Assembly: GCA_029974695.1 (NCBI GenBank)
Contig: JARKQW010000140.1
Location: 1 to 41,951 of the forward strand
DNA: 41,951 bases
Direction of reading: 5' to 3'
From: Syntrophobacteraceae bacterium
Lineage (GTDB): Bacteria; Desulfobacterota; Syntrophobacteria; Syntrophobacterales; Syntrophobacteraceae
A model generated the notes under the pieces. That model ran no database searches. It saw nothing but the letters and a program-made list of their open reading frames with translations, and had not been told where the DNA came from. The position numbers were made by a program, and so were the translations under genes. Positions 3,001 to 38,789 of the stretch are shown piece by piece (the first letter of the stretch is position 1; each line of letters starts with the position of its first letter).

Positions 3001-3242
3001 AATTCCCTCTGGACGGCGACCCGCTCGCCGGCCTTCCGCTCCCGGCCGACCCGGCTTCTCATGGCGAAGAAGTCCCGGGCGAGGGTTCTCAGCTCCCCGT
3101 ATGGGGGGCGGATGCCCTCCTCCTCGTCCCGGCGCTTCCATTCCTTGAAGACGTCCTTGAGGTCGTTTTCCAGGATGGCGCTGAGGTAGTGGTGGCTGTA
3201 GAACTCGTTTTCGTTGGTGATCCCCGTGAGATTCATCGCCAT
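1..3242 (-). CDS. Large gamma-class N6-adenine DNA methyltransferase (Eco57I/PglX/DrmMI-like); C-terminus cut by window edge
   Basis: Not in the supplied ORF track because it has no stop inside the window. Reverse complement from ATG 3242..3240 reads MAMNLTGITNENEFYSHHYLSAILENDLKDVFKEWKRRDEE. The same frame was hand-checked at 1679 (AGRDREKSASYYTPEVLTRC), 1559 (LTVCEPAMGSAAFLNEAVNQ, SAM motif I-like) and 407 (ARYRFLHWELEFAEVFADRGGFDLVLGNPPWIK, motif IV NPPW). All listed minus ORFs in 1..3267 lie in the other two frames. The start overlaps the helicase stop (TGATG). Confidence 0.85.
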   Translation of the reverse strand, partial: MAMNLTGITNENEFYSHHYLSAILENDLKDVFKEWKRRDEEEGIRPPYGELRTLARDFFAMRSRVGRERKAGERVAVQREFLQVLLQVLGYPFSLDLKELDDGKRIPVMGEVKRPGGAPELWVLDALTTPGEDEDPLEVPLQAAQYPEGVEVDPGILEMSLEDLITRRVFRLSEPPRWVILASDAQLLLLDRSKWNEKRLLRFDLKEIFDRKEPTTFQAMAALLHRESVCPSEGLSLLDTLDENSHKHAFAVSEDLKYALREAIELIGNEAVRYLREKLHEKVYERELAGDLTLECLRYMYRLLFLFYIEARPELGFAPMKADPYRLGYSMESLRDLELVQLTTEESRNGTFLHESLELLFKMIYEGFPPEKDGPGRQLGMVAAPAHHTFRIPPLRSHLFDPARTPILRKVKFRNQVLQKVIELMSLSRGGNRRDRRGRISYAQLGINQLGAVYEALLSYRGFFAETDLYEVKKAGESHDPLNTAYFVKAEDLPKYSDQEKVYNEDGSLRMYPRGTFIYRLAGRDREKSASYYTPEVLTRCLVKYALKELLKDRTADEILKLTVCEPAMGSAAFLNEAVNQLAEAYLQRKQRETGRIIPHDRYGVEKQKVKMVLADNNVFGVDLNPVAVELAEVSLWLNTIHEGAHVPWFGMQLVSGNSLIGARRRVFASELLKPAKRTDKVWLDAVPTRIMPGEERPPKSVYHFLVGDRGMADYADRVVKEMAGDAVRAVNQWRRDFTRPFTDREVSRLERLSGEIDRLWDRHTRDRRDVRRETTDSMSVFGMEGAEAKSGANRPALTTSEKDRRFLERIHSRGVRNSSAYRRLKLVMDYWCALWFWPMEKADLLPTREEYFFDLSLILEGNVLETTPPEGQLRLFPDNRPKQLSMPAPDKFGMVDVERLCREIPRLEVVCELSARYRFLHWELEFAEVFADRGGFDLVLGNPPWIKVEWNEGGVMGDREPLFVLKSFTAPQLAALRKETLARYDLRSDYLQAFEEAEGLQNFLNGLQNYPSLKGVQTNLYKCFLPQAWMIGAKSGVSAFLHPEGIYDDPRGGPFREAVYARLRHHFQFENEMKLFQDV

Positions 3243-6103
3243 CAGTCGGCCCCCTTGAGCACGGCAACCACCTGGATGTAGGGGTTGTCCTCGGTGGTCA
3301 TGGTTTCTTCGATCCAGTTGAAATACTCGTCGAAGATGCGGTCGATCTCCCTGCGTTCCTTCTCCTTCCTCCCCTGAACGAGTTTTTCCGGAAGCTGCAT
3401 GGACTCGAACCGCGCCTCCAAGTGAAGGAACTGCTTTTTCCTGAGCCTCTCCAGGGCATTGAGGTGCTCATTGAGCTTCTCGTTGATGCGGTCCTCAAAA
3501 TCCTTTCGTTCCCGACTCATCCACGCCCCGGCCCGGGCCACGGCTTCGGGAAGGAGCTTGAGGAGGGGCTCCAGGTCCATGTCGTTTCCGGTGTTGGGGA
3601 AGTTCCTGCTTGCCAGTCCGGTGCGATCGAGGAGGCTTTGAAAATCCTCGATCCCGTGGAAGTGACGGTTTCGAAACGAGACCCCGATCCATCGGTGTAT
3701 TAGGGGGTGGCTCCTGCGGTTGGGGATGAGGCCCGAGAGGATGAAGACGACTTCCCCGGGTTCTAGGGCACCCTGGAGGCCCAACACCGGGGCTTCATGC
3801 CGGCCGAAAGCGGCGACCACCTTGTCGTTCACCCATTCGAGGACCGGGTTCAGGGTCCAGAGGAAGTGGATGTTCGGCCAGGCGTTCTCGTCCTTGCGGC
3901 TCCGTTTGATTTCCCCCTGGATCGTCGCCGGGTCGGACGAAAGGGTGAAAACGCCGTCCTCGGGCCAGATCTCCCGGGGAAGAAACCGGAATCGCTGTTT
4001 CAGGTCTTCGGGAGGGGTGAGGTCAACGCGGCGCCGTTCAGGGAGGAATTCCACCTGGAGGGGCTGCGACTGCCTGAGGTGCCGGACGGCCGCCTCCAGG
4101 TAAGCAAAATCATCCCGAAAGAGTGTGGGCATGGAGCGGGTCACGGCCGGCGCATCGCTGCCGGTGGGCGGCTCCTCTTCTCCCATGAGCAGGGCCAGGG
4201 GGTCGAACGCCTTTGCCTGGAGGGAGGCTTCGAATTCCCCGGGGCTCTGGTTTTCTTCCATGGCGCGGGCGGTGATTTTTTCTTCCTCCTCGATGTCGTA
4301 GACGCCCATCAGAGCGCTGGGGTCCCCGATGTTTTTCACCGCCTGTTCGTCCTTTTGGATGAGGAGTTCGAGGATGCGGGTGTCCCCCCGGATTTTGGCA
4401 TTGTCACTATGGGTCACGAGATAGAGGATCTGCGGGGTGTGCTCCTGCCCGTAGCGGTCGATGCGGCCGTTGCGCTGTTGAAAGACCATGAGGGACCAGG
4501 GGATGTCGAAATGGATCATGCGATGGCAGAGGAAGTGGAGGTTGATGCCCTCCGAGGCCACGTCCGATGCGATGAGGAGCCGCACGGGTGCCTCTTCCTT
4601 GCCGAAATCCTCGACGATGCGCTGCTGTTCGATGTCCGAGAGGGTCCCGTAGAGCACCTCGACCTGATTTTCGTGCAGCCCGAGCTCTTGTTTCAGGTGC
4701 CTCTGGAGGAATCGCAGGGTCTCGATCCGTTCCGTGAAGATGACCAGTCGGTCCCGGGTGTCTTTGCCCGTCCATCCCAAACCATGCCGGGTGTCCCGGA
4801 GGAGTTCCACGAGCTTTCGGTATTTGCCGAAATGCTCCGGAGTGATCCTTTCGACTTCCCGGGCGAGGTCTTCCAGGGTCTGAACGTCCTCGTCCCAGGA
4901 GGCGTCTTCGGACTTCCTGAGGCGGTTCACCCGGTTTCGGATGGTTTCGAGGCATGCGGCGGGGCTTGAAAAGAGGGCCTTCTCGAGGGTGGTCTTGAAG
5001 AGTTCCCCGGCGGGCGCGGTCCGGTCGATGCGGGTGAACTTGAGATCCACGAAGGCGTCGAACGCCGCTTCTTCCCGGACGGACGCCCTGCAGGGCACCT
5101 GACGGATCTGTCTTTCCTTGAAGGCCTTTTCCACCTGGTTCTGGATGTCCTTTTTGAAGCGGCGGATGAAGAGGCCCTTGATGTCTTCCCGGGTGTAGTC
5201 GTCGGGGTTTGCGATGGCCGTGGGGTCGAGCATGTTCATGATGCTTGCGAAACTGCGGGCCTTTCCGTCGTGGGGAGTGGCGGAGAGCATGATGAGCGTG
5301 TCCGAGCGCTGGGCCAGGAGCCTGGCCAGCTTCGCCCGCAGGGATGAACCGCCGTCCCGTTCCGCGACATTGTGGGCCTCGTCGATGACGATGATGTCCC
5401 AGTAGGCGTTTTCGAGGTAGGTTCGGTATTCGGTGTCCTGTTTCAGGGTGTCGATGGAGATGATGGCCCTGTCGTAATAGTAGAAGGGGTTGTGGTTGGT
5501 GGGGATGCGGCTGCGGATCCGCTGGATCCCCACGGAGTCCAGCCGGGTGAGGGGGATGGTGAAGCGGCTCCACATCTCCTTCTGGAACTGAGTGAGCATG
5601 CTCTTCACCACAACCACCAGGATGCGTTTCCCTCGGCCCCTGCGGATGAGTTCACTCAGAAGGATCCCGGCTTCCAGGGTCTTTCCCAGCCCCACGGCAT
5701 CGGCGATGAGGATGCGCTGCCTCGGTTGCCTGAGGGCCTGGACGGCCGGGACCAGCTGGTAGGGGACGGGGTCCATGGCGGCCCGGTGGCCGATGTAGAG
5801 GTTCTCGTCCGTTGGAGGTGCCTGGCGAAGGAGGCTCTCCATGTAGAGGAGAGACGCCTGGTAGGAACTTGAGGAGTCCCGAACCAGATTCGTTTTCGCC
5901 GGGTCGAGAACTTCGATGGGTTTTGCCAGATCCTCGACCTCCGTGAGGTATACGGCCTCCTTGTCTCTCACCAGCTCCGATATGCCGACCACCGTGACGG
6001 CCTGCCCCCCGGTGGAAGTTCGATCGACCTTGCGCACCAGCCATTCCGCGTCGCGCACGAGCACCCTGGCTCCCGGCGCCGGGACATTGCCTTTGAGGTT
6101 CAT
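3242..6103 (-). CDS. SNF2/RapA-family helicase (DrmD-like)
   Basis: ORF 3242..6208. Motifs: ADAVGLGKT (Walker A), VIDEAHNV (DEAH), LMLSATPHDGK (motif III), LIASDVASEGINLH (motif V), QQRNGRIDRYGQ (motif VI), plus about 330 aa of C-terminal extension. Preferred start is ATG 6103 (MNLKGNVPAPG), preceded by GAAGGAAGCAAGG. The in-frame ATG at 6208 is possible but lies in low-GC, non-coding-looking sequence. Confidence 0.9.
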   Translation of the reverse strand: MNLKGNVPAPGARVLVRDAEWLVRKVDRTSTGGQAVTVVGISELVRDKEAVYLTEVEDLAKPIEVLDPAKTNLVRDSSSSYQASLLYMESLLRQAPPTDENLYIGHRAAMDPVPYQLVPAVQALRQPRQRILIADAVGLGKTLEAGILLSELIRRGRGKRILVVVVKSMLTQFQKEMWSRFTIPLTRLDSVGIQRIRSRIPTNHNPFYYYDRAIISIDTLKQDTEYRTYLENAYWDIIVIDEAHNVAERDGGSSLRAKLARLLAQRSDTLIMLSATPHDGKARSFASIMNMLDPTAIANPDDYTREDIKGLFIRRFKKDIQNQVEKAFKERQIRQVPCRASVREEAAFDAFVDLKFTRIDRTAPAGELFKTTLEKALFSSPAACLETIRNRVNRLRKSEDASWDEDVQTLEDLAREVERITPEHFGKYRKLVELLRDTRHGLGWTGKDTRDRLVIFTERIETLRFLQRHLKQELGLHENQVEVLYGTLSDIEQQRIVEDFGKEEAPVRLLIASDVASEGINLHFLCHRMIHFDIPWSLMVFQQRNGRIDRYGQEHTPQILYLVTHSDNAKIRGDTRILELLIQKDEQAVKNIGDPSALMGVYDIEEEEKITARAMEENQSPGEFEASLQAKAFDPLALLMGEEEPPTGSDAPAVTRSMPTLFRDDFAYLEAAVRHLRQSQPLQVEFLPERRRVDLTPPEDLKQRFRFLPREIWPEDGVFTLSSDPATIQGEIKRSRKDENAWPNIHFLWTLNPVLEWVNDKVVAAFGRHEAPVLGLQGALEPGEVVFILSGLIPNRRSHPLIHRWIGVSFRNRHFHGIEDFQSLLDRTGLASRNFPNTGNDMDLEPLLKLLPEAVARAGAWMSRERKDFEDRINEKLNEHLNALERLRKKQFLHLEARFESMQLPEKLVQGRKEKERREIDRIFDEYFNWIEETMTTEDNPYIQVVAVLKGAD

Positions 6104-6954
6104 CCTTGCTTCCTTCAGTTTTGCTGAATCCACGCAAAGAAAACCAATGCCAAACTCCGTTTGCCGCAAAACCCGTCTGGGTGCGGAAAAAGACCCGTCA
6201 TGGTTCATGGTTGCCGCGACATTGGGGCGTCAGGAATCCCAGTGCCCGCATGATTTCCAGGTAGCGGTATAGTGAAACAACTCCGCCATTCCAGCAAGAC
6301 CGAAAACATCCCGCCACGGTAGGATGGAGAGTCATGGGTGCTGATCGGGGTGTAGCGGCCCAAGAAAAGGTGGCCGTCCGCATGGAGAATGTACCGAAAG
6401 GGTATCATCGTTTCCATGATGTCGACTTCAACGGTTTCAACATCGACTAGGTCGCCGCGGGACCTGGTGGAATCTTTCGCATCGAAACCAAGAGCCACAG
6501 GGGAGGTATCGCTTCGAACGGTGACAATCTACTGCTGAACGGCAAGACTCCCGGACCCGGACGCCAACCCAGGATCGTGAACGATTCTTCCGGAAACAGA
6601 CATCCAAAGAATGGAGGGTCAAGCCTCCCTCTGCTTAGAGAATGCTTACGCGAGGATTCGTGAACCGGTGAATGCCATCACCATGTCCGGTATCGGCTAC
6701 CGGACTGGATTCCTCTGTCGGCAGCCCCATATGTCATCAAGCGGGAAGATGTGGAGCGGATTGCCCGCATTCTTTCTTGGTGAATTTCAAGGAATCGGCG
6801 CAAAGGAAGGCAGCCGTCGGGCCGACTTCTTGTCGTGGCATGGCATACTGCGTTCACCCTTCAATTGCCCACGGTTTCGTGGTATAGACCTAGGCACCTA
6901 CGGCAGCCGTTCATCCGATGTCGAGTTACACGATTCCGAGAGCATCGGGGCTTC

Positions 6955-18635: not shown

Positions 18636-19051
18636 TCCTCCGGGTGCCTCGATGCCGAAGGTCCCGAAGGGGCGGCAGCCAAGGCCGCGGACGCCGTCCC
18701 GAGATTCAGCGGGCGATAAGGATGTGCCGGCGGCAAGCGGGCGGGGCACCCCGGGAGGCGACATGGGTCGGCCTCAACGTCCCCGACACCTGCCGAAACT
18801 CCCTCTCCGGAAAACGCCCGGCACGATCGAGGATGTGCTTGACGGGAGCTTCGGCCCAAAGTATCAGAGTCAGTGCTTTCGTTCCGTACCACACAGACCC
18901 CCCGAGGGGGAGGGCGTTTCCGCATCCCCTCCCCCGCTTGTCTCCTAACAGCAACCGTACCGATCCGAAAAATTCTCCTTTTTTTCGAGTCGTCTCGGGA
19001 GCGTTGTCCCTTCTTACGGCCACACACTGCGAAGCAGCCAAAGGATGATCT

Positions 19052-22000
19052 ATGAGCCCCATGACGCTGGAACAGTTGAAAGGGAGAATGGCGGACAACC
19101 GCGAATTCCAGGACTATTTGAAGTGGCAGGAAAGCCGGTCGGGCCGGAAGATCCTGGACGACGTGGCCCTGCTGAGGGCCTACCAGGGGTACCTCCTCGA
19201 ACACTTGGGCGATGTCCGGGGCCAGCTCATGGACGAGTCCGACCTTCGCCTCTCCCTGGTGCTGGCCCTCCATTTCAACCCGCTGTTTCAGCAGGAATTC
19301 CGGGCCGGAAATCCCACCCTCGCCCAAAGGTACGACAAGGAAACGGCCGTTCAGAGCTCCGGACCGGTCAACGAGCTCATGGCCCAGGTTTTCAAGCAAT
19401 ATGCGGCCTGGCTGACCCGGGAACTGGACGACACCATGTTCCGGCTCGAGGAGGCCGGGACGGACGAAGTCCTCCAGTACGAGAAACGACGGGCGTTGGA
19501 GCTGCGGTTCGGAAAGCTCTTCGACCGGGAGCTTCGCCTGGCAAAGGAGGAAGGCTACACCCTCCAGCTGGCCGTCCAGGAGAAGGAACAGACCAAGAAG
19601 GAGGTCATGGAGTTCCTCTCCCAGGACGCTTCTTCGCGCGTCACTCGATTTAATTGGGCGATTTTCGGAAACAGCGACAAGACCTCGGCGGGAATCGACC
19701 TCCTCAATCGGGAGATCACACGGTGCAACAGGGTTTCCGGGATCATGCGCGCCATGCTGCCCCGTTACGCCGCTCACCCGAAAAGCCGGGAGATCCTCGA
19801 GACCCAGATCGCCCTGGCCGAATCCCGCCGGACCGAGGCCGAACACTACATCGCCCGGCTCAAGGAGTGCAAGAGGGTCAAGAAGCAGGCCCGGATCTCC
19901 TGGCAGGAGAAGACGGCGGAGTCCGAAGCCTTGCTGAAACAGACGGATGTGGAACTCCTCGGCGTGAGTGAGGACCTCCTGCGCGGGGTCCGGCAGGTGG
20001 TTCCGTCCCTGCGGGAACAAGAAGCGCAGATCGGGACTCGCCTCAAGGAACTGGAGAAGACCGTCCGGGAGATTCCCCGTCTCTATGAGGAGCAGGAAAA
20101 GCAGACGAACGAGCTCGTGCGAATCGAGTCCATCCTGGCAGGGGACCCTATCCGGTTGAAGTACCTTGGCAACCTGGGATTCAAGGCCGGCTCCCTCCCG
20201 GCCCTTCGCCGGTCCATCGCCGAGAGGGCCCGGCTCATCGAGGAGACCGAGCTGCGCCAACGGCACCTGAGCGAGGATCTCGCCTTTCTCAATGCCAAGT
20301 ACAACGCCATGTTCGATCGGACGGAAGCGGCCCTCAACGACCAGCAAGAGCTCAATCGGCTTCGGGCCAAGGCCCACGACGAGCTCCAGTGGCTCCAGAG
20401 CCTTCCCCGGATTCACAGGGCCCTCAATGTTTACTGTTCCACGGCCACCGTGACCTTCGAGCTTTTTCTGAGCATCGGCCAGATCGCTGCGGGCCGGGCC
20501 TGCGGTCCCGTCGGGGGGACGGCCGTCGCGGCCATGGGCATCGCCGGCATGCCCATCACCTATGGATTGAGCCTTCCTCTTTCGGGGGCGCTCCTCACCA
20601 ACATACAGCCCTACGACACGGGGCAGCTGGGCATTTCCCTCAAACTGGGCTTCTCCTGGGGTGCGGACTTCCAGCCGGCCACCAAGGACAGCCTGGAAGC
20701 GAGCGTGGGCATGGCCATTGTCTACGATGCGTCCCTCCAGGTGTCCGACACCCGCGGGTTCTCGACGGTGAGCACCATCACCCTGGCTACGACGGCGGAG
20801 GCCGCCATTCCCGGCGCCCTTCGGGCAGCCATCGAGATGGAGCTCATCAAAGAGAAACGGGTGATGACTTTCAAAGATGTCTATCACTGGGCGGCCTGGA
20901 TCGGCCAGAAGTGGGCCAACCTCCGCGCCTGGGCGGTGGCGGCCCGGCTTTACCGGGGAGGAGGGACCTCTCAACCGACGGCGGAGGACCTCAAGCGCCT
21001 TCGGGAAGTTGCCGACATCTCCCTCAAGAACGACAAGCCGACCCGGGACATGCTCGAGAAGGTCTTCAAGTACATGGGGGAACCCATTCTGCGGACGGAG
21101 TGCAAGGAGCTCTTTCCGCACATAGGAGCGGAAATCTCGGCGGCGGAATTCTTCAGTCTCAAAGGAGCCCGGGAGCGCAGGTCCGAGCCCAAGTTCATCC
21201 GGAGGAACAGCGACATCAAGACGGGGGAAGTATACGACGAAGAGAGAAAAGGGGATCAGTGGAGCCGATCTTTGACCGTGGGAGCGGGAATCCAGGTGCA
21301 GGCGGATTATTCCAATGTTGAAAAGGACCCCAATCCCGACAACGTAGGGGAGTCCCTGACCTTCACCATCTCCCTGCCCATATTCGATCAGAATGCCCAA
21401 TGGATCTCGACCCCGGCAATGGATCCCTCGAAGGGGGCCATCGGCACCTGGGTGCAGAGTCACCTGGCGCCTGCGGCCAACAAGATATCGAACTTCACGA
21501 ATCCGGGGGTGTTCAATCTCTTCAAGAGTTCCCTGGCCACGAATCCTTTCCTGAGTCTCAGCACCGGCCTGGCCCTGGGCACCGTCCAGGTAGCCCTCTT
21601 TCTTTCGACCCTCACCAAGCGTCCGGCCCCCGACGGCAAGACCGGCAAATGGGTCCTTTTTTACTGGCGCCCCGTTTTCAGCACGGCCACCGAAATCCAG
21701 AGGACCGTTCCCCTGGGCTACGGGTTCAACATGGTGCTGGGAGGAAGCGTGTCCTTGTCCCGCACCTACCGGGAACAACTGGGGGACAACACCATCGTGT
21801 ACCTCCAGATCGTGTACAACGGTCTCATGAATATCTCCCTGCCCGGCGACGACGGCAATCCCAGACCCCCCGAGGCCCGCGGTCCGGCGCTCTGGAAGGA
21901 ATACGTGGACACGCAAAAGAAGACCATTTGGAGGATGATGCACAACATCACCCTTCCCCATACCTGGATTGCCGCCGAGGTGAATGACCGGGAAGGAGGC

Positions 22001-23698
22001 GCGAAACTCATCGCCGACCTCAAGAGAATCATGCCCGCGCCCGCCCGCCGTTCCTCCAAGGGGCTGCCCTCCCAGCATAAAGCTCCCTACGTGGACGTGG
22101 ACGCCCCGGAGTCCTACCCCGACTTCAGCCAAACGTTGTTTGACAAGGCTTTTGACCCCTTTCAAAGGCACCTCGAAGATTTTCGCAAAAGCGATTACCT
22201 CACCCACAAGAACAAAGACTGGCATCGCATCCCCATCCAGGGAGGCACCTTCAATTGGTCCATGAATCCCATCGTCATTGCCGGGGAACTCTACCGAACC
22301 CACACGACCCAGTACAAGCTCGAGAAGGGCGTGGTGGACGCAAGAACCGCCCTGGGTCATCGAAAGGGGGCCTCCCAACAGGTCCTGGCGGACGTCAAGA
22401 TGGTGCCCGACGAGCAGGCCCCCAACTGCATGTTGTGCGGGGTCGCCTTCAGCTTCATTCGCCGTCGGCATCACTGTCGCGAATGCGGGAAGGTCTTTTG
22501 TGCCGATTGCTCGAGCCACAACATCGAGCTTCCCCACAGGAGCCAATTCAAACCCGTCCGGATCTGCAACACCTGCTATGCGCGGCTCACCGCGGCGCCC
22601 AAGCAGCCTGCCCAGGCCCCGAGCGGCCACAAAGACCCCGGCGCCGCCGACCATGGGGAACCTCTCCCGCAGGTTCGGAGCCCGGTGAGCCAACCCCACA
22701 GGGAAGGCCTCCCCGCAGCGACCCACAGCCCGGTGAGCTCTCCTCAGAAGACGGGGATGTTGACATCGGCCTACGTTTCCTCGCAGGTTCCCGGAAAGGA
22801 AAGCCTGCTCACGTCCTTCCGCCGAAGCCCGGAGGCTCCCAGAGGGGAAAGCCCGCTCTCATCGTCTGGTTCCAACCTGGGCGCCCTCGATCCAGACGGC
22901 GGCAGGGTGCAGGCCCCGGTGGTGCGGGGAGGGGAGGTCCGATCGGAGTGGGGAGAGGGGAAAGACGAAATCACCGTGCTGGACGAGATGGAGCACGAGC
23001 GGTGGTGGAGCACTCGGATCGCCAGGCCCGTTCCCAGCAGCGCGGACCGCCAGGCCTACATCGATTTCGCCGTTTCCGATGCGCAGGCAGCCCAGGCAAT
23101 GAGAGAGGAAAGCCCGGCAAGCCGGGAGGCTCAGAAAAGCAAGGGCAAAATCTCTCCTGGCGGCAGGTCCTCGAGACTGAAAGGAGTGACGGTTGCCGAA
23201 GAAGGAAGGAATCCCATTGTCGGCAAGGAGTTGACCAATTACTTCGACATTACGGATGTCTCGGCGGATGGGAATTGCCTGTTTCGATCCATGGCCGTCG
23301 CTCTGCAAAGGCCCGAGAATCAGCACAAGGCCTATCGGCGCCTGGCGGTGGAACATATCTTCCTGCACCCGGCGGATTTTGAGACCGTGTACCAGGGCAA
23401 CGTCCCGGCCTATCTTTACACCATGTCGGAGACGGCACGGCACCCCGAAGACAAGGCACGGTGGGGTGGTTCCCCGGAAATCCTCGCGCTAAGCCGGATT
23501 CTGAAGCGGGAAATCATCGTCTATGCCTGTACCTTCGATTCCCCCACCGCCTGGGAGCTGAACCGGACGGTCCTGTTCGTGCAACAGCACGCCATGGGTG
23601 ACGGTCCCTTCAAGCCACCCCGGGAGGCGGTCCCCATCTACATCGCAAACCAGGGGGGAAACCACTACGTCTGCCTGAAGCCCAAGGCCCGGCGGTAG
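19052..23698 (+). CDS. 1548-aa multidomain protein: coiled-coil N-terminus, bilobed hydrophobic segment, unknown beta-rich core, FYVE zinc finger, P/S-rich linker, C-terminal OTU cysteine protease
   Basis: ATG 19052 follows AAAGGA. The amino-acid composition is balanced and protein-like (K, N, Y, W, F, I), unlike the 1402-aa antisense ORF, which is G/R/P/L-rich. FYVE: MVPDEQAPNCMLCGVAFSFIRRRHHCRECGKVFCADCS...VRICNTCY. OTU: DVSADGNCLFRSMAVAL ... GGNHYVCL. Confidence 0.9.
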   Translation: MSPMTLEQLKGRMADNREFQDYLKWQESRSGRKILDDVALLRAYQGYLLEHLGDVRGQLMDESDLRLSLVLALHFNPLFQQEFRAGNPTLAQRYDKETAVQSSGPVNELMAQVFKQYAAWLTRELDDTMFRLEEAGTDEVLQYEKRRALELRFGKLFDRELRLAKEEGYTLQLAVQEKEQTKKEVMEFLSQDASSRVTRFNWAIFGNSDKTSAGIDLLNREITRCNRVSGIMRAMLPRYAAHPKSREILETQIALAESRRTEAEHYIARLKECKRVKKQARISWQEKTAESEALLKQTDVELLGVSEDLLRGVRQVVPSLREQEAQIGTRLKELEKTVREIPRLYEEQEKQTNELVRIESILAGDPIRLKYLGNLGFKAGSLPALRRSIAERARLIEETELRQRHLSEDLAFLNAKYNAMFDRTEAALNDQQELNRLRAKAHDELQWLQSLPRIHRALNVYCSTATVTFELFLSIGQIAAGRACGPVGGTAVAAMGIAGMPITYGLSLPLSGALLTNIQPYDTGQLGISLKLGFSWGADFQPATKDSLEASVGMAIVYDASLQVSDTRGFSTVSTITLATTAEAAIPGALRAAIEMELIKEKRVMTFKDVYHWAAWIGQKWANLRAWAVAARLYRGGGTSQPTAEDLKRLREVADISLKNDKPTRDMLEKVFKYMGEPILRTECKELFPHIGAEISAAEFFSLKGARERRSEPKFIRRNSDIKTGEVYDEERKGDQWSRSLTVGAGIQVQADYSNVEKDPNPDNVGESLTFTISLPIFDQNAQWISTPAMDPSKGAIGTWVQSHLAPAANKISNFTNPGVFNLFKSSLATNPFLSLSTGLALGTVQVALFLSTLTKRPAPDGKTGKWVLFYWRPVFSTATEIQRTVPLGYGFNMVLGGSVSLSRTYREQLGDNTIVYLQIVYNGLMNISLPGDDGNPRPPEARGPALWKEYVDTQKKTIWRMMHNITLPHTWIAAEVNDREGGAKLIADLKRIMPAPARRSSKGLPSQHKAPYVDVDAPESYPDFSQTLFDKAFDPFQRHLEDFRKSDYLTHKNKDWHRIPIQGGTFNWSMNPIVIAGELYRTHTTQYKLEKGVVDARTALGHRKGASQQVLADVKMVPDEQAPNCMLCGVAFSFIRRRHHCRECGKVFCADCSSHNIELPHRSQFKPVRICNTCYARLTAAPKQPAQAPSGHKDPGAADHGEPLPQVRSPVSQPHREGLPAATHSPVSSPQKTGMLTSAYVSSQVPGKESLLTSFRRSPEAPRGESPLSSSGSNLGALDPDGGRVQAPVVRGGEVRSEWGEGKDEITVLDEMEHERWWSTRIARPVPSSADRQAYIDFAVSDAQAAQAMREESPASREAQKSKGKISPGGRSSRLKGVTVAEEGRNPIVGKELTNYFDITDVSADGNCLFRSMAVALQRPENQHKAYRRLAVEHIFLHPADFETVYQGNVPAYLYTMSETARHPEDKARWGGSPEILALSRILKREIIVYACTFDSPTAWELNRTVLFVQQHAMGDGPFKPPREAVPIYIANQGGNHYVCLKPKARR

Positions 23699-31677: not shown

Positions 31678-32865
31678 TCAGATGAAGCGCTTGTGGGTTT
31701 CTTTAAGATACTTCTCTTCCAGGAGCAGGGTGATCTTCTTGACGATGTTGCGCCGAATATCGAGCTCGACGGGGAGATTGGGGTCCTGGTGGGCTTCGTT
31801 GACCCGGGTTCCCACCACGAAGAAGATGACGTCGCTGTCCAACAGGATCGAAGCGAGGGTCGTGGCGGCGTTGGACCGCATGAGCTCGGGTTTTTGTCCG
31901 CGTTCCAGGATTTCGGAAACCTTGCTCAGGGTCAGGGTGCCTTCGGTGATGAGGTCGATTCCTTCCATTTCCGAAGAGGGGGGGATCTCGGGATCCAGGT
32001 TCTCGAGGTCCATTTTGATCTCCCGGTCCAGTTCCCGTCCGACGATGGAAGCGGTGGTCCCGCCGCAAATGACGATCCGTCCGGTGAAGGAACGCACCAG
32101 GTTGGCCAGTTCGGCGTCCTTGGATTCGGAAAACGGGGGACCCGTAAGGACCAAGAGGGTTCGTGGGTGTCGCAGGTACATGACCCCGCAGGAGATGTCG
32201 TCCTTGGGTTCATAGGCATCGATTTGTCGGGCGCGGAGGGCAATCTTCATGGCCAGTTGACGGGAGGAGATGCCGTCCTGCCAACTGATCCACTTGAGGG
32301 CCTGTTCGATGACCCGCCTTCGTCCCCAGCCGATAGGATAATCCGGCCTCCCCATGCCCGCCTGACTGACGCCGTCGGAGAAGAAAAGGACCCGGTCTCC
32401 TATGTGCAGGTCGAACTCGGAAAAAACCACCTCCCGGTCGTGCCACCTCTCGAGATGGATGGGGGTCTTGGGGACGGAGACGGGTTCTCCGTCCCTGAGC
32501 AGCACGTATTCCGGGTTGCCGTGCTCGATGATGCGGGCGTGCCCGATGCTGTTGACGTCCACGATGGTGAAGGTGGAATAGCTGATCATGCGCACTTTGC
32601 ATACCGGAAGGGTGTCCATGATCACCTCGGCCGTCTCCCGCACATCGGCGTAATTCGAAATATACTTGATGGCCATGGTGGCCGTGAGGGTAGCCAGGAC
32701 ATTGGCCTTGACGCCGCTGCCCAGGCCGTCCGAGAGTACGGCGATGACCCGGTTCTCCTCCCGGATCTTCTGCATGAGGAAGACGTCTCCCGCCACGAAT
32801 TGCTTGTTCTTGCAATACTGGTAATGGTCGATGTCCAGGAAGAAATCCCTCGTGGTCTTGATCAT
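31678..32865 (-). CDS. PP2C-type (SpoIIE family) serine phosphatase with extra C-terminal domain
   Basis: VLSDGLGSGVKANV and VLFFSDGV are metal-binding Asp motifs. ATGA overlap with the hydS stop. Confidence 0.85.
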   Translation of the reverse strand: MIKTTRDFFLDIDHYQYCKNKQFVAGDVFLMQKIREENRVIAVLSDGLGSGVKANVLATLTATMAIKYISNYADVRETAEVIMDTLPVCKVRMISYSTFTIVDVNSIGHARIIEHGNPEYVLLRDGEPVSVPKTPIHLERWHDREVVFSEFDLHIGDRVLFFSDGVSQAGMGRPDYPIGWGRRRVIEQALKWISWQDGISSRQLAMKIALRARQIDAYEPKDDISCGVMYLRHPRTLLVLTGPPFSESKDAELANLVRSFTGRIVICGGTTASIVGRELDREIKMDLENLDPEIPPSSEMEGIDLITEGTLTLSKVSEILERGQKPELMRSNAATTLASILLDSDVIFFVVGTRVNEAHQDPNLPVELDIRRNIVKKITLLLEEKYLKETHKRFI

Positions 32866-34583
32866 TCCAGCTCCGGCGTTGTCATGGAATGGATGATGGA
32901 GTTCAAAATCACCTCGGTTTCGGCGGCATTCTCACCCAACAGGTAAGCGATTTGTTGAACTGTGGCCAAGTTCTTCTTGATGACGTCCTGAGCTTTGTGA
33001 ATCATGGCCTCTTTGTGAATCGTGGGCTTGGTGATGTCCTGGAAGATCCCGCAGGCCACCCGGTTTTTCTCAATGGAAAAGATGTCGATGTGGAAGACCG
33101 ACTTCTTGTAGCGCAAGTCGCGGTTGAGGATGTCTTCTCCCTTTTCCAGGACGGTCTTGAAGAGGGAATAAAAGGGGGCGATCTCCCGCAGAGGCACTCC
33201 TTCCAGGCCGGGGGAGGCCTTGAAGGCCTTTTCCACGTCGGCTCCCAGGATCTTGGCGAAATTGAGATTGCATTCGATGATCTGGAGTTCCTCATCCACC
33301 AGCACGATGCCGCTGGGGGTCTTTTCCATGAGGGCATTGGTCTTCTTCTGGGCCAGCTTTCGCATGTAGGCCACGCACATGACCTTTTCGGCCTTGCCGT
33401 CGATGAGGGCCTTGGCAAGCTCACGGCAGTTGTCGTAGCCGCAGCCTCCGCAGTTGAGTTCGTCTTCCGGGCCGTACTTGTTGAGGGTCTGGAGGGTCTG
33501 GCGAATGATGCTGTCGCTGTATTCCTTCACGGGCACCGGGTCCGGTTGAAAGCCTTTCCAAACGGGGGCGGCTAGAGGGCGTGGGATCATGGACTGGGGA
33601 TAGCTTGCGTAATGGATGACCTGGTAGCGCTTCCAGGCGGTGGCGTTGCGCTGATTGGCCTTGGGACCGTTGACGCACCCTCCTTCGCAGGCAAGCAGTT
33701 CCAGGAAGAGGGGGTGGGTGAGGCGCATCTCGCCGAGCCCCGCCAGGGCTTTGTGAATGTTGCGAATGCCGGAAAAGGACATGCATTCCGCTTCCATGAC
33801 GCTGCACCCGGCCTTCACTCCCGCCACCATGCCGCCGTCGATGGGGTACAGGGCACCCTCCTGGGCCGAGGAGGGAACAAAGACGTCATCCTCTCCTCTC
33901 TCTGCCGTGTCGAAGGAAAAAGGCTCGCTCATGAACCATCGTCGGAGGTCCTCGAAGGTGAGGGCGACATCCAGCAGGTGGGGGTTCGCGTCCGCCTCTC
34001 CCTTTTTGGCGATGCATGGGCTGAAGAAGACGATCCCGATATCCGGGCCGTAGGTCTCCCGCAGCAATTGGCCGTGGGCCAGGACCGGGGAGACGATGGG
34101 AGACAGGCAGGCGGCATACTGGGGATAATATTTGCCCAAGAAGGTGACCACCACCGGACAGGCCGTGGATATGACCACTCGAGGCGTACGATCTTGAAGC
34201 AAAGCGGCAATGCTGCCCGAAACCCTTTCGGCCCCCAGGGCGGTTTCGGAGACGCCGTAAAACCCCAGACGCTTCAGGGCCCGAATGATCGCGTGGGCCG
34301 GAACGTCCGGGAACTCACTGATGAAGGACGGAGCCAGGGAGGCAAAGACCTTTTTCTTCTCTTTGAGAAGGGTCTGGGCCCGTTGCAGGTCGTCGCGCAC
34401 ATGCTTGGCTCCGTTGGGACAGATCTCCACACAGTGGCCGCACAGAATGCATAACTGGGGGATGACCGCCGCGCAGGCGTTTTCGACCTTGATGGCCTTG
34501 ACGGGGCACTCGCGAATGCACTTGAAGCAGTCCTGGCATTCGGTCCTCTCCGTATAGATGATGGGAGCGGGCAGAAGGGTCAT
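32862..34583 (-). CDS. Sensory-type [FeFe]-hydrogenase homologue (HydS/HfsB-like, group C): 2x[4Fe-4S] + H-domain + Cys motif + PAS
   Basis: N-terminal CQDCFKCIRECP and CILCGHCVEICP. H-cluster motifs: L1 STACPVV (canonical TSCCP), L2 SPCIAKKGE, L3 ELLACEGGCVNG. Then CGGCGYDNC and a PAS-like C-terminus. Confidence 0.85.
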   Translation of the reverse strand: MTLLPAPIIYTERTECQDCFKCIRECPVKAIKVENACAAVIPQLCILCGHCVEICPNGAKHVRDDLQRAQTLLKEKKKVFASLAPSFISEFPDVPAHAIIRALKRLGFYGVSETALGAERVSGSIAALLQDRTPRVVISTACPVVVTFLGKYYPQYAACLSPIVSPVLAHGQLLRETYGPDIGIVFFSPCIAKKGEADANPHLLDVALTFEDLRRWFMSEPFSFDTAERGEDDVFVPSSAQEGALYPIDGGMVAGVKAGCSVMEAECMSFSGIRNIHKALAGLGEMRLTHPLFLELLACEGGCVNGPKANQRNATAWKRYQVIHYASYPQSMIPRPLAAPVWKGFQPDPVPVKEYSDSIIRQTLQTLNKYGPEDELNCGGCGYDNCRELAKALIDGKAEKVMCVAYMRKLAQKKTNALMEKTPSGIVLVDEELQIIECNLNFAKILGADVEKAFKASPGLEGVPLREIAPFYSLFKTVLEKGEDILNRDLRYKKSVFHIDIFSIEKNRVACGIFQDITKPTIHKEAMIHKAQDVIKKNLATVQQIAYLLGENAAETEVILNSIIHSMTTPELE

Positions 34584-34589
34584 TCCTCT

Positions 34590-34853
34590 CTACTCCTGGA
34601 TCTTCAGGTGTTGGTCGAGCAACGCAAGGATCGTCGCGGAATCCACGCAGTTGAAGACCTGGCCGTCAACGGTCAGATTGGGTCCGTCCTTGCACAACCC
34701 TTCGCATAGATGTCCTTTCATGACCACCTTGCCGCAAAGACCATGGCGCTCGATGTATTCCTTGATGAGTTTGATGTTGCGCTTGTTGCCTCTGGAAAAG
34801 CATGAACTGCCCATACAGATGGCCAGTTCCAGGGGTTGTTTCGTGCCGCTCAT
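34590..34853 (-). CDS. Thioredoxin-like [2Fe-2S] ferredoxin (NuoE-like)
   Basis: Cys pattern C-x4-C ... C-x3-C (CMGSSC ... CEGLC). ATGA overlap with the hydE stop. Confidence 0.8.
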   Translation of the reverse strand: MSGTKQPLELAICMGSSCFSRGNKRNIKLIKEYIERHGLCGKVVMKGHLCEGLCKDGPNLTVDGQVFNCVDSATILALLDQHLKIQE

Positions 34854-35953
34854 GGTTGTTCTCCAAATTGTTCAACACCCATAAGGATCTTGCTCCCGGG
34901 GACCCTCAGGCATCCTGGAGACCGCTTCCCCGGGCCTTTGCCGACGGTACGTCCCATGGACCGTATGCGGTCCCGGATCTCACCTGCATCGAACGAGGTC
35001 CGACCGGTCCCTGCCTTCTTGGGGTAGATTTCGTACCTGCTGCGGTATGGATGGGGGGTGAGGTTCGGCATGACGACGTTGGCGCCCCGCTCGAGGCCCA
35101 GTTCGTACCCGCGCTCGGGATTCAGGGTCGCCAGGGCGGTCGTGCTGGGAATGTTCGCCTCGGGGCAAAAAATCCTGGACAATGCAATTACCTTGGTCAC
35201 CATGAGCTCCGTCGCGGGGACCTGTTCCCCGTCGGTCCTCGAGAATCGCCGGGGAGAGGTGCCCAGAGGCGTTGCCGGGTGAGGCAGAAACGGACCCACC
35301 CCGATCATATCCAGATCCAACGACCGGAACAACAGGATATCCTCCACCAGGCTGCGGTAACTCTGACCGGGGATTCCGATCATGACGCCGCTGCCGATTT
35401 CATACCCCAGCCCTCGAAGGGACCGGAGAATGGATAGGCGGTCCGAGGGGATCGAGGAAAGGGAAGGGTGGATTCGTCGGTACAGGGCGGCATCGGACGT
35501 CTCGAATCGCAGGAAGTAACGGTCGGCTCCGGCTTCCCTCCACAACGCCAGTTCGCCGTAGGACCGTTCTCCCAGGCTCAAGGTCACGGCCAGGGAGCTT
35601 TCCTTCTTGAGTTCCCGGATTACCGAGGCCACCCAGTCTGCGGAACATCCCGGGTCTTCGCCTCCTTGCAACACCACCGTGCCGAATTGCAGCCTCTGCG
35701 CATGGCGGGCGCTCTCGAGGATCTCCCGGCGGCTCATCCGGTAGCGCTCGATGAGGGAGTTGTCCGCGCGCAACCCGCAGTAGAGGCAACGCCGCCTGCA
35801 GAAGCTCGAGATCTCGATCAATCCCCGCAGGTGGACCTCGTCTCCCACGGTCCGCCTGCGGACGGTGTTCGCCCATTCCCAGAGGGATTCGATCTTGTCC
35901 GGGTCTTCCTCCCGGAGCCATCCGAGCAGTCCGTCGCCGTCCATGGGCTTCAT
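34850..35953 (-). CDS. hydE: [FeFe]-hydrogenase H-cluster radical SAM maturase HydE
   Basis: Lies in ORF 34850..36229. ATG 35953 (MKPMDGDG) overlaps the hydF stop (ATGA). Radical SAM CRRRCLYC. The length of 367 aa and the biotin-synthase-like core are typical of HydE. Confidence 0.85.
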   Translation of the reverse strand: MKPMDGDGLLGWLREEDPDKIESLWEWANTVRRRTVGDEVHLRGLIEISSFCRRRCLYCGLRADNSLIERYRMSRREILESARHAQRLQFGTVVLQGGEDPGCSADWVASVIRELKKESSLAVTLSLGERSYGELALWREAGADRYFLRFETSDAALYRRIHPSLSSIPSDRLSILRSLRGLGYEIGSGVMIGIPGQSYRSLVEDILLFRSLDLDMIGVGPFLPHPATPLGTSPRRFSRTDGEQVPATELMVTKVIALSRIFCPEANIPSTTALATLNPERGYELGLERGANVVMPNLTPHPYRSRYEIYPKKAGTGRTSFDAGEIRDRIRSMGRTVGKGPGKRSPGCLRVPGSKILMGVEQFGEQP

Positions 35954-37185
35954 CGCGGTTCCTTGAGGTCCCGATAGGTCTCCAGTGCGGCCGGAAAAGG
36001 CTCCAGCGCCCGCTCCAGGATCCCCAGACTGTAGGCGATCACGACCCCGTAATTGGTGATGGGAACCCCGGCCTGTCGGCAACGAAGGATCCGGCCGAGC
36101 ATCTCCCTGCGATTCCACATGCAGGCCCCGCAATGAATCACCAGCCGGTAGGGAGAAAGATCTTCGGGGAAGTCGTGTCCCTGAACGTGCCGGAACTTCA
36201 GCCGGGAGCCCACATGTCGGGTGAGCCACTGGGGGATTTTGATCCGCCCGATGTCCTCCCCGATGGGATGATGACTGCAGGCCTCGGCAACGAGGACCTG
36301 GTCCCCGTTCCTGAGTTCTTCCACAGCCATGGCTCCCCGGACCTGGGTGATGAGGTCCCCCTTGAATCGAGCGAAAAGAATCGAGAAGCTGGTCAAAGGG
36401 ATCCCCGGAGGCACCACGGCGGCCACCTCTCGGAAAGCCTGGGAGTCGGTGATCACCAGTCGCGGCGGGTTCCTCAGCTGTTGAAGGGCCTTTCGCAGTT
36501 CCCGATCCTTCACCATCATGCAGTAGGCATCGCTGTCCAGCAGGTCTCGAATGGTCTGGACCTGGGGCAAAATGAGCCGTCCCTTGGGGGCTTCCTTGTC
36601 AATGGGAACCACCAGGACCGCGAGTTCTCCCGCTCCCACCAGGTCGCCCGCAATGGCGGGGTTGTCGATGAGCTCGGCCGGGGCCTGGTCCAAGAGAGCC
36701 CGGCGCAGCGCCCCCAGCCCCTCTCCGGTCAACGCGCTCACCCGCACCACGGGAATATCGGGCGGCAAGGAGGCTGAAAGGGAGTTCGAGTTCCCCGGAC
36801 TGAGGTCGCACTTATTGACGACGATTACCCCGGGGATCTTCCGGGATTGCAATTCTTGCACCACGAGCTCTTCGAAGGTTGTCCAGGTGCCCGCTTCGGT
36901 CACGAGGACTCCCAGGTCGGTCCGGTCGAAGACCTGGCGCGTCTTGCGGGTGCGCAGGTCCCCCAGGGCCCCCTCGTCGTCCAGGCCCGCCGTGTCGATG
37001 AAGAGCACCGGCCCCAGGGGGAGCAGTTCCATGGGCTTTTCCACCGGGTCGGTGGTGGTGCCCGCCACCTCCGATACGATGGCGACCTGCTGGCGTGTGA
37101 TCGCATTGAGCAGGCTCGATTTGCCCACGTTGCGCCGCCCGAACAACCCGATGTGGATGCGCATGCTCTTGGGTGTCTTCTGCAT
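35950..37185 (-). CDS. hydF: [FeFe]-hydrogenase maturation GTPase HydF
   Basis: ATG 37185 (MQKTPKSMRIHIGLFG). G1 GRRNVGKSS, G3 DTAG, G4 NKCD. C-terminal FeS motif CSHHP...HCGAC. Length 411 aa. Confidence 0.85.
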   Translation of the reverse strand: MQKTPKSMRIHIGLFGRRNVGKSSLLNAITRQQVAIVSEVAGTTTDPVEKPMELLPLGPVLFIDTAGLDDEGALGDLRTRKTRQVFDRTDLGVLVTEAGTWTTFEELVVQELQSRKIPGVIVVNKCDLSPGNSNSLSASLPPDIPVVRVSALTGEGLGALRRALLDQAPAELIDNPAIAGDLVGAGELAVLVVPIDKEAPKGRLILPQVQTIRDLLDSDAYCMMVKDRELRKALQQLRNPPRLVITDSQAFREVAAVVPPGIPLTSFSILFARFKGDLITQVRGAMAVEELRNGDQVLVAEACSHHPIGEDIGRIKIPQWLTRHVGSRLKFRHVQGHDFPEDLSPYRLVIHCGACMWNRREMLGRILRCRQAGVPITNYGVVIAYSLGILERALEPFPAALETYRDLKEPR

Positions 37186-37364
37186 GAAATCCCCGTCCTG
37201 CGGTTCTTGTTCGCCGGATGCCCTCGGCATTTGGCCGTCGGCAAGGAGGGATGGGTTCAAGGTCCCATCCGGGTTTTGCGGTGGGGCCCCCGAAACGGCA
37301 CACGCCCTCGGGGGCGGATGAACCCTTCGAACCGTGTCGAGAGAATCCGGCGGGATCCGCGCCG

Positions 37365-38789
37365 TCAAATGTAGACGTCCCGATGGCCCTTGCGAACCCG
37401 ATCCAGCATTTTTGCGGCCGTTTTCCCGTGCCGGTCGTCCATGCGGTCCAGATGGGTCCGGATGAGCTTCTCGCCTGCGGCCAGGGTTTCCGGGGAGGCA
37501 TAGTCCAGCAGGTACTCGAGAAACGTCGACAGGGCGTTGGGATCGCACCGGTGCTTGATGTCCCCGGGCTTGGCCAGCTCCATGAAATCCGCCCCCGTTC
37601 GCCCCAGGCGATAACAGGCGGTGCAGAAGGAAGGAATGTAGCCCATGGCGGACAGGTCGGCAACGACCTCGTCCAAGGAACGATGGTCCCCCAACTGGAA
37701 CTGGGCGTCCTCCTCATGAATCCCGTCGGAATATCCCCCGGGGTTGGTGCGGCTCCCGGCGGAGATTTGGGAGACTCCCAGGGCGAAGGTGTTTCTCCGG
37801 ATTTCCGGCGTCTCCCGCGTGGACATGATCATGCCCGTGTAGGGCACTGCCAGGCGGAGAATGGCCACGAGCTTTTCGAAATCCCGGTCGCTCACGGGAT
37901 GCGGGGGATTGTCGGCGATTTCGGAACCCGCGGCGGGCTCCATGCGGGGAACACTGATGGTATGGCACCCCACCCCGAACGTGCGCTCCAGGTGTTGAAT
38001 GTGCTGCAGGAGGGCCAGGACCTCGAAGCGCCAGTCGTAAAGCCCGAAGAGCACCCCCATTCCCACGTCGTCGATTCCGGCTTCCATGGCGCGGTCAAAG
38101 GCCGTGATGCGCCATTCGTACTCCCGCTTGCGCCCCTTCGGGTGCATCCGTGCGTAGGTTTCCCGGTGATAGGTTTCCTGGAACAGCTGATAGGTCCCGA
38201 TTCCCGCGGCCTTGAGCTCCCGGAACTCTTCGAGGGTGCAGGGGGCCAGGTTCACGTTGACCCTGCGGATCTCTCCCCGGTGAACCCGGGTCTTGTAGAC
38301 CGTGGCAATGGAGTTGAGAATGTAGGAAAACCCCTCGGCAGGATAGCCTTCCCCCGCCACGAGCAGGAGTCGCTTGTGGCCCTGCCCCACCAGGATTTCC
38401 ACTTCCCGGGCGATTTCTTCCTGGGAGAGGGCTCGGCGGCGGATGTCCCGATTGCCGGCCCGGAAGGCGCAATAGAGGCATTCGTTATGACAGTAGTTGG
38501 AAATGTAAAGGGGAGCAAACAAAACGATGCGGGGGCCGTAGACGGCTTCCTAGACGGATCTTGCCGTGGAGAAGAGCTCCCCGATCAGCTCGGGGTCCCG
38601 GACGGACATCAGGGCGGCCACTTCCTCGGGGTCGAGCCCTTTCAGTTCCGTTGCCCGGGCAAGAATCTCGCGAACCCGCACGGGATCGTCCCCGGGATGC
38701 GGCCCCTCGAGAGCGGCCGCAACGGTAGATTCATTCACGAAAGAGCTGCTTGTGTTCGATCGAACCATAACCTTCACCCGAGCGGTCAC
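37365..38789 (-). pseudogene. hydG: HydG radical SAM maturase interrupted by one in-frame TAG (38552..38550)
   Basis: Track ORFs 38550..38789 and 37365..38522 are in the same frame. Read-through gives ...ELFSTARSV*EAVYGPRIVLFAPLYISNYCHNECLYC. Radical SAM CHNECLYC. The C-terminal CTAC-x22-C auxiliary cluster motif is intact. Total 474 codons, the normal HydG size. Confidence 0.8.

Follow-up and report, generated by a model that had tools for sequence, protein, structure and literature searches.

Background

Nearly all known deubiquitinases (DUBs) that bacteria use as effectors come from organisms living within cells, either as pathogens or as symbionts, namely Legionella, Chlamydia, Rickettsia, Orientia and Wolbachia. 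Bacterial OTU DUB effectors and lipid-anchored DUBs are both already known. Legionella LotA (Lpg2248), an OTU DUB that is a substrate of Dot/Icm, a type IV secretion system, needs a C-terminal region that binds phosphatidylinositol 3-phosphate (PI3P) to reach the vacuole and remove ubiquitin (PMC7472693). Bacterial phosphoinositide binders usually lack FYVE, PH and PX domains, and the lipid-targeting modules are usually unrecognisable by sequence (PMC13435680). Here we describe a gene from a Syntrophobacteraceae bacterium that encodes a FYVE zinc finger and, after a long linker, an OTU cysteine protease domain. It lies on a stretch of 41,951 nucleotides (the window; forward strand of contig JARKQW010000140.1, assembly GCA_029974695.1), and the coordinates of its parts are collected in Table 1.

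Several other described systems are relevant to this locus. The CE-clan DUB effectors (Orientia OtDUB, Chlamydia ChlaDub1/2 and Rickettsia RickCE) come from pathogens with an obligately intracellular life, and both their secretion routes and their membrane anchors are other ones. The Francisella-type (subtype ii) type VI secretion system (T6SSii) uses ClpB and mediates phagosomal escape, and according to reviews Francisella is its sole holder (PMC10653695, PMC12955703). One of the effectors it injects, OpiA, is a PI3-kinase that produces PI3P on the phagosome (PMC10653695). Finally, the eCIS_core domain (DUF4157) marks toxins loaded into extracellular contractile injection systems (eCIS), where a long spacer typically separates the tag from the toxin (PMC8213781).

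The window protein and its relatives combine features of these systems in an unfamiliar way. In environmental bacteria that live freely, a FYVE finger of the textbook eukaryotic kind is joined to an OTUD-like OTU domain. DUB domains of the OTU, CE and USP folds are exchanged on one scaffold, and some relatives are encoded in Francisella-type clusters in spite of the restriction of T6SSii to Francisella in the reviews (PMC10653695, PMC12955703). We found no description in the literature of a bacterial FYVE-DUB, of a T6SS-linked FYVE protein or of any bacterial effector that has a canonical FYVE finger. Nor did we find the core scaffold, the swapping of DUB folds or a T6SSii-like link in free-living bacteria described.

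Results and discussion

An OTU cysteine protease domain at the C-terminus

The original prediction placed an OTU-family cysteine protease at the C-terminus of the encoded protein. Judged by its sequence, the 3' end of the open reading frame (ORF) does encode a genuine OTU-fold cysteine protease. A search with the Pfam OTU profile (PF02338) gave a significant match at aa 1405-1496 (E=2.3e-12; score 48 bits, gathering cut-off 23.3), well outside what chance would give. On its own, the domain matches the sequences of solved structures of OTUD1, OTUD3 and a nairovirus viral OTU (vOTU) at E=7e-6 to 4e-4. A family profile built from 8 diverse OTU tails, which are 34-62% identical to that of the window protein, matches solved OTU DUBs over the whole length of the domain. 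The best of these matches are OTUD1 (4bop, E=3e-12), OTUD5 (3tmo, E=6e-12), OTUD3 (4bou, E=3e-11) and the nairovirus vOTUs (E=1e-10), and none of the Lot structures was recovered at E<=0.01. A homologue search with aa 1380-1548 alone returned 0 matches and missed even a 99% identical protein, which we judge to be a limit of the index for short queries. The interval first proposed for the domain, 23235-23695, needs a small correction: position 23235 is the second base of codon 1395, and the family hidden Markov model (HMM) sets the bounds given in Table 1.

The catalytic residues fall where they had been placed. Cys1409 is the predicted nucleophile and His1538 the predicted general base; both are present at the expected codons, and the spacing of about 130 aa measures 129 residues. 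The peptides quoted in support are also all there (DGNCLFRS from aa 1406, WGGSPEIL from 1471 and GGNHYVCL from 1535). The Cys loop reads D1406-G-N-C1409-L-F-R and the His loop contains H1538-Y1539, a His followed by a large aromatic residue. Profile alignments place DGNC on the DGNCL(Y/F)R of OTUD1 and OTUD3, and H-Y on the H-Y-D/N of OTUD1, OTUD3 and OTUD5. Like these enzymes and the vOTUs, the window domain has the DGNCL(F/Y)R loop, a W/H-G..E variable loop, H-Y and the C...H order at a spacing of ~110-130 residues. It differs from them in an insertion of ~12 residues before the His loop, and in its position within a bacterial protein that has a FYVE finger and a 1,100-aa N-terminal scaffold.

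Across the 8 family OTU domains the motifs D-G-N-C-x-F-R, W-G-x-x-x-E (in the variable loop), F-x-P and H-Y are invariant, as are one His and one Arg within the first helices. Identity to three orthologues is 62-64% for the OTU domain, compared to 63% for the coiled coil, 66% for the core, 64-77% for the FYVE finger and 24-30% for the linker. The 99% identical protein (P0001) has 23 differences, 12 of them in the linker and 0 in the catalytic motifs. Because the OTU domain is conserved like the other folded modules and the changes in P0001 spare the catalytic motifs, the domain is under purifying selection. We expect it to act as an isopeptidase on ubiquitin or on a ubiquitin-like modifier (Ubl).

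The FYVE finger and the linker

The original prediction also held that the protease is tethered to a FYVE domain by a long flexible linker, and this architecture is real. The finger matches that of EEA1 (1hyi) at E=3e-18 and has the R(R/K)HHCR and R-I-C motifs, the former within RRRHHCRECG at aa 1137. The eight zinc-binding cysteines (C1126, C1129, C1142, C1145, C1150, C1153, C1172 and C1175) are invariant in the family. By its motifs the finger would bind PI3P. The linker is the sole poorly conserved segment of the protein, as against 62-77% identity in the folded modules. An island within this variable linker, at 23096-23170 (aa ~1349-1373) just 5' of the OTU domain, is conserved in the closest orthologues (P0002-4) and reads 'DEITVLDEMEHERWWSTRIARPVPS...YIDF'. 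The island could extend the OTU domain on its N-terminal side, perhaps as an element that binds ubiquitin.

A protein family with an exchangeable C-terminal module

The window protein belongs to a modular family. The layout is a coiled coil, a core of ~660 aa, a FYVE finger, a disordered linker and a C-terminal module that can be exchanged. Full-length FYVE and OTU orthologues that are 60-61% identical, together with P0001, are found in metagenome-assembled genomes (MAGs) of Syntrophobacteraceae, and the contig that carries one orthologue is bacterial and 716 kb long. Scanning the GTDB genomes added MAGs of Syntrophobacter, Syntrophobacteraceae, Desulfobacteraceae and Myxococcales, and a metagenome scan added 4 loci. 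The family is also present in a cultured aerobic methanotroph with a complete genome, Methylomagnum ishizawai (WP_085212325.1, with an OTU-like tail).

In six members (P0005, P0008, L008, L009, P0022 and P0026) a Ulp-like domain of the CE clan takes the position of the OTU domain, which the window protein retains. The CE domain of P0005 matches Orientia OtDUB (6ups, E=7e-8) and ChlaDub2 (E=4e-3), and P0008 and others match RickCE_cat. A third fold is found in a distant relative, P0059 (L013:5879-10690). This protein has an eCIS_core/DUF4157 domain (aa 92-156), a USP/UCH domain (aa 218-489, E=1.5e-17), a coiled coil and the core (aa 921-1396). The USP domain was detected by Pfam, and a USP7 sequence used as a probe missed it. 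In a family-HMM census of 31 FYVE-bearing sequences there were 11 with a canonical OTU domain, 6 with a CE domain and 14 with another or no domain, several of the latter being OTU-like by motif. Both the OTU and the CE versions occur in each of the two main sub-branches. That a single scaffold carries three unrelated DUB folds is the best indirect argument for the C-terminal module serving to deconjugate ubiquitin or a Ubl.

Other C-terminal arrangements were also observed. A Cys-containing domain of ~230 aa, with the motif 'S/NNCYIDSTLY...', ends P0007 (aa ~1160-1386; L004) and P0024 (aa ~1300-1535; L016), where it follows an OTU domain. It has no match in the PDB or the local Pfam and a faint match to PF27931 in precomputed annotation, and it may be another cysteine peptidase. 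P0006 and P0025 stop after the FYVE finger. Two tandem paralogues (L005:4328-9376 and L005:10001-13627) belong to an island that also contains toxin-antitoxin genes, Fic and integrase fragments. Of the two, the upstream copy has 1682 aa, is 27% identical to the window protein and carries FYVE and OTU domains plus a tail of ~150 aa ('LIGYHGTS...GPGFYTT'). The similarity of this tail to the catalytic domain of diphtheria toxin is below threshold (E~0.1), and we did not assign it. A 1132-aa ORF upstream of the P0008 gene was rejected as a paralogue (hhalign probability 0.2%).

Two further observations concern single members. Three-helix segments that resemble UBA domains occur in P0008 (aa ~1140-1170, before the FYVE position) and in the tails of P0031, P0034, P0035 and P0043, which lack FYVE; their matches are weak (EF-Ts_N, E=0.03; TAP_C, E=0.44). 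A P0004-like copy in a Syntrophobacter sp. (L006:9656-12169) is interrupted by in-frame stops beyond about aa 740 of the fragment. Probably this copy is a pseudogene with a frameshift, or the assembly is in error.

Relatives are linked to Francisella-type secretion clusters

The family gene adjoins a Francisella-type T6SS cluster in 5 of the 20 distinct family loci (L003, L008, L009, L012 and L017). In M. ishizawai (L012) the order is a short VgrG-like gene, TssF/IglH, DotU, TssG, an IglI family gene (NF041244, E=1e-98, 331 bits), IglG/DUF4280, an AMP-binding enzyme, the family gene, ClpB, a TssM-like protein and IglE. The other four loci carry the same T6SS genes. Three distant relatives that share the core module (P0058, P0059 and P0063) have the eCIS_core/DUF4157 domain. 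By Pfam this domain is absent from the window protein and from the FYVE-bearing relatives. By the T6SS-linked loci, together with eCIS_core in the distant relatives, the scaffold travels with contractile injection systems.

The family shares several properties with the Francisella effectors PdpC, PdpD and OpiA. These too exceed 1,000 aa and are encoded in or beside a cluster of the IglE/IglI/IglG/ClpB/TssM type. OpiA acts through PI3P on the phagosome (PMC10653695), and the family scaffold has a PI3P-type FYVE finger. However, the window protein has no detectable sequence relation to the three effectors or to other curated Francisella island proteins (NCBIfam on the whole protein, 0 matches at E<=1), and its locus is without T6SS genes. 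PdpC carries an MCF-like triad and is not a DUB (PMC12955703).

Clusters that resemble the Francisella pathogenicity island were thus seen in a cultured methanotroph, in Desulfobacteraceae MAGs and on metagenomic contigs. One further locus (L022) has the same cluster order without the family gene. A search for TssM found 4 proteins, none of which demonstrates a T6SSii in the lineage of the window. A gene for an AMP-binding (acyl/aryl-adenylate-forming) enzyme is conserved in three clusters (L012:8246-9937, L003:3284-5017 and L017:24000-24611). In L012 and L003 it is the gene immediately upstream of that for the FYVE effector, and in L017 it sits at the cluster's far end. The enzymes are 34-41% identical between loci, and a role as a chaperone, in modification or in lipidation is possible.

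Proposed function

We consider it probable that the window protein is a secreted, PI3P-anchored OTU deubiquitinase effector directed against eukaryotes. The effector would enter a phagocytic eukaryote, most likely a bacterivorous protist, and the most likely vehicle would be a Francisella-type T6SS with its genes elsewhere in the genome. The FYVE finger would attach to PI3P on the side of the phagosome or endosome that faces the cytosol, and the flexible linker of ~200 aa would let the OTU domain sweep the membrane surface and cleave ubiquitin or a Ubl from membrane-associated substrates. The loss of ubiquitin would blunt ubiquitin-dependent sorting, xenophagy or phagosome maturation. The beta-rich core may associate with or insert into the membrane.

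That the FYVE finger would place a DUB on PI3P membranes had been part of the original prediction. The idea is strengthened by the CE and USP swaps and by the T6SS clusters of relatives. The analysis establishes what the domains are, that the catalytic and PI3P-binding motifs are conserved, that the C-terminal module is exchanged for other DUB folds and that genes of relatives are linked to T6SS clusters; secretion of the window protein, PI3P binding, isopeptidase activity, substrate and host are predicted. LotA is the direct precedent, with the same functional logic of a lipid-anchored bacterial OTU DUB on a PI3P-positive vacuole. It differs in having a helical lipid binder that is not a FYVE finger and two OTU domains with a Lot-specific insertion, and in being delivered by a type IV system. 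The order is also different, with the lipid binder at the C-terminus in LotA and the order lipid binder, linker, OTU in the window protein. The eCIS toxins, which have an N-terminal DUF4157, share this domain with the distant relatives P0058, P0059 (with its USP domain) and P0063, but not with the window protein.

A number of observations weigh against the effector interpretation. To our knowledge the bacteria that carry the family, which are free-living syntrophs, sulfate reducers and methanotrophs, have no eukaryotic association. There are no T6SS or eCIS genes in the 42-kb window and 15 of the 20 family loci are orphans, so the case for delivery of the window protein is drawn from its homologues. 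Pfam and NCBIfam find none of the recognised T6SS cargo markers (PAAR, VgrG, MIX) in the protein. The FYVE finger is canonical in sequence apart from its WxxD motif, which reads M-V-P-D (22397-22408, aa 1116-1119). The same Met replaces the Trp in P0005, while the closest orthologues P0002-4 have W-V-P-D, and the substitution might lower PI3P affinity or membrane insertion. AlphaFold2 (AF2) gave no confident three-dimensional model of the OTU domain: with an alignment of 5 sequences only, pLDDT was 40 and pTM 0.32, although the order of helices and strands fits. Finally, the residue two positions after the catalytic His is Val1540. This position is V, S, G, K or T across the 8 family OTU domains and never D, N or E, where the OTUDs and vOTUs have Asp or Asn.

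The last two points bear on whether the OTU module is catalytically weakened or dead, and acts mainly in ubiquitin binding or uses the OTU fold for some activity other than that of a DUB. Canonical OTUs have the triad C...H-aromatic-D/N/E (PMC7396840), so the Val, which is found in all four close orthologues, means that activity could be lowered or altered. However, mutation of the acidic residue in different OTUs has led to complete, intermediate or partial, or no loss of activity, and in A20 and ceg23 the acid comes from a position upstream of the Cys (PMC7396840). All close orthologues retain Asp1402, seven residues ahead of the Cys, and it is a possible A20-like upstream acid. The Cys, the His, the DGN of the oxyanion loop and WG..E are invariant down to 34% identity, which is unexpected for a dead enzyme, and the CE and USP catalytic domains to which paralogues have switched are intact. 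We therefore hold a weakened module to be unlikely. An active protease might instead cut its own chain (in cis) or have bacterial or effector proteins as substrates, for example to free a C-terminal part from the N-terminal scaffold after delivery, as in the polyprotein processing by viral OTU or papain-like proteases. The protein is large and multi-domain with a long linker, self-processing is common in polymorphic toxins, and long linkers go with the DUF4157 of the distant relatives, a putative metallopeptidase tag (PMC8213781). Yet the closest solved relatives are all isopeptidases for ubiquitin or ISG15, the alternative C-terminal modules are DUB folds (OtDUB-like CE, USP) and not generic processing proteases, and no conserved Gly-Gly-like site was seen in the linker, though none was searched for. 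Self-processing or a bacterial substrate seems to us quite improbable.

The remaining alternatives concern where the protein acts and whether it is bacterial at all. The original prediction had allowed that the protease might process a bacterial Ubl conjugate, in which case the protein would stay inside the cell, for example as part of an antiphage Ubl system. The region around its gene is ordinary chromosome and the gene itself an orphan, and E1/E2/Ubl defence systems with their own deconjugating peptidases exist in bacteria (PMC10557695). The evidence here runs the other way. No E1, E2, Ubl or JAB genes occur in the window or in the neighbourhoods of homologues, PADLOC defence-system models returned 0 matches for a Ubl-conjugation or antiphage system, five loci are tied to T6SS and not to defence islands, and a canonical FYVE finger has no known bacterial ligand. 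We give an intracellular role little credence. Syntrophobacteraceae live in physical contact with archaea, and ubiquitin-like systems exist in some archaea. The target of DUBs that syntrophic and sulfate-reducing bacteria would fire from Francisella-type T6SS could then be an archaeal partner or competitor with ubiquitin- and ESCRT-like (endosomal sorting complex) machinery, such as an Asgard-type archaeon, and not a protist. The closest homologues are annotated as Syntrophobacteraceae or Syntrophobacter MAGs, the window carries [FeFe]-hydrogenase maturation genes, and ubiquitin, E1/E2/E3 and ESCRT are reported from Asgard and other uncultured archaea. Against an archaeal target, the family is also found in an aerobic methanotroph (Methylomagnum), in Myxococcales and in Desulfobacteraceae, PI3P is not known in archaea, and the sole characterised T6SSii acts on eukaryotic phagosomes (PMC10653695). 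We regard it as a slim prospect, slightly less likely than an intracellular role. FYVE and OTUD-like OTU domains are each typical of eukaryotes, and in a full-protein search the sole matches outside the family were to mammalian ZFYVE26, via the FYVE finger. A eukaryotic gene fragment that was mis-binned or joined into a bacterial contig is nevertheless hardly credible. The ORF is continuous and intron-less, an AAGGA ribosome-binding site lies 6 nt 5' of the ATG (19041-19045), GC content is 0.61-0.63 over the gene and its flanks, and bacterial genes stand on both sides. The orthologues on the 716-kb contig and in the M. ishizawai genome effectively refute an assembly artefact.

If the protein is indeed a secreted PI3P-anchored DUB, there would be an environmental reservoir of phagosome-directed effectors that could serve as digestion-resistance or anti-grazing weapons, and this could bear on the origin of pathogen strategies. 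M. ishizawai is a cultured organism in which the whole proposal can be tested. An archaeal target, if true, would mean that a family of bacterial effectors manipulates a membrane and ubiquitin system of proto-eukaryotic type, within syntrophic consortia like those invoked for eukaryogenesis.

The N-terminal modules

The N-terminal region has weak Pfam matches of the coiled-coil type (COG3_N, E=0.015). The core that follows has no match in Pfam or NCBIfam. A core profile run against 1.84 billion representative proteins retrieved 120 clusters at E<1e-3, and 36 of these reach E<1e-30. The AF2 model of the core, from a 43-sequence alignment, has a pLDDT of 78 and a pTM of 0.81 and consists of long antiparallel strands and helices. 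In Foldseek against the PDB it shows local likeness to the outer-membrane barrels FadL, TodX and CdiB (E~7e-6, TM score 0.17-0.27), and nothing was found in BFVD. With TM scores this low the core is assigned to no fold family. Four strands at aa 524-607 have a strongly alternating hydrophobic (amphipathic) pattern. It is plausible that the core, with its Gly/Ala-rich segment, associates with or inserts into a membrane. If the effector interpretation is right, the core would be a new effector scaffold module.

Genomic setting

The FYVE-OTU gene is the sole long ORF with family support, with the OTU domain at its 3' end, and the intergenic region upstream is 416 bp. The locus is an ordinary chromosomal region, with a uniform GC content of 0.57-0.64 over the window. 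A TonB receptor with a FecCD/ABC transporter and an NmrA/DUF2867 protein precede the gene. It is followed by a major facilitator superfamily transporter, a periplasmic binding protein, a [FeFe]-hydrogenase-like sensor, HydF and a radical-SAM (S-adenosylmethionine) protein. The neighbours of the gene differ between orthologues, and there is no conserved neighbourhood.

Table 1. Coordinates of the FYVE-OTU gene, its modules and predicted catalytic codons in the window, and of Francisella-type T6SS clusters in other loci
Feature	Position	Strand	Basis
Whole gene, 1548 aa + stop (coiled coil, beta-rich core, FYVE, linker, OTU)	19052..23698	+	
N-terminal helical/coiled-coil region, aa 1-448	19052..20395	+	63% identical to orthologues
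Beta-rich core of ~660 aa, aa 449-1109, opening with a Gly/Ala-rich hydrophobic segment	20396..22378	+	Profile and AF2
FYVE zinc finger, aa 1117-1180	22400..22591	+	Pfam PF01363, E=1e-21
Ser/Ala/Pro/Gly-rich low-complexity linker, aa 1186-1385 (~200 aa)	22607..23206	+	24-30% identity and ~50 gapped positions vs orthologues
OTU cysteine protease domain, aa 1382-1545 (family HMM bounds)	23195..23686	+	Pfam, family profile, conservation
Codon of predicted catalytic Cys1409 (Cys loop D-G-N-C-L-F-R)	23276..23278	+	Invariant, aligned to OTUD1/OTUD3
Codon of predicted general-base His1538 (His loop G-G-N-H-Y-V)	23663..23665	+	His and next Tyr invariant
T6SS cluster, M. ishizawai	L012:1-20837 (FXAM01000001.1, 1630151-1654356)		
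T6SS clusters, other loci	L017:14791-24611; L008:2-4120; L009:292-3384; L003:1-5017; L022:1-14202		

Two other groups of genes in the window were recorded. A SNF2-family helicase (3242-6208, minus strand) matches DISARM DrmD (PADLOC E=1.5e-106) as well as BrxH/DpdE models. It adjoins a 1079-aa ORF (42-3281, plus strand) that has no Pfam or PADLOC match, and the two may be part of a defence island. At 32862-37548 (minus strand) a [FeFe]-hydrogenase-like protein with a PAS domain, of the sensory type, is grouped with a radical-SAM protein and the HydF maturase. This group is consistent with a hydrogen-metabolising anaerobe.

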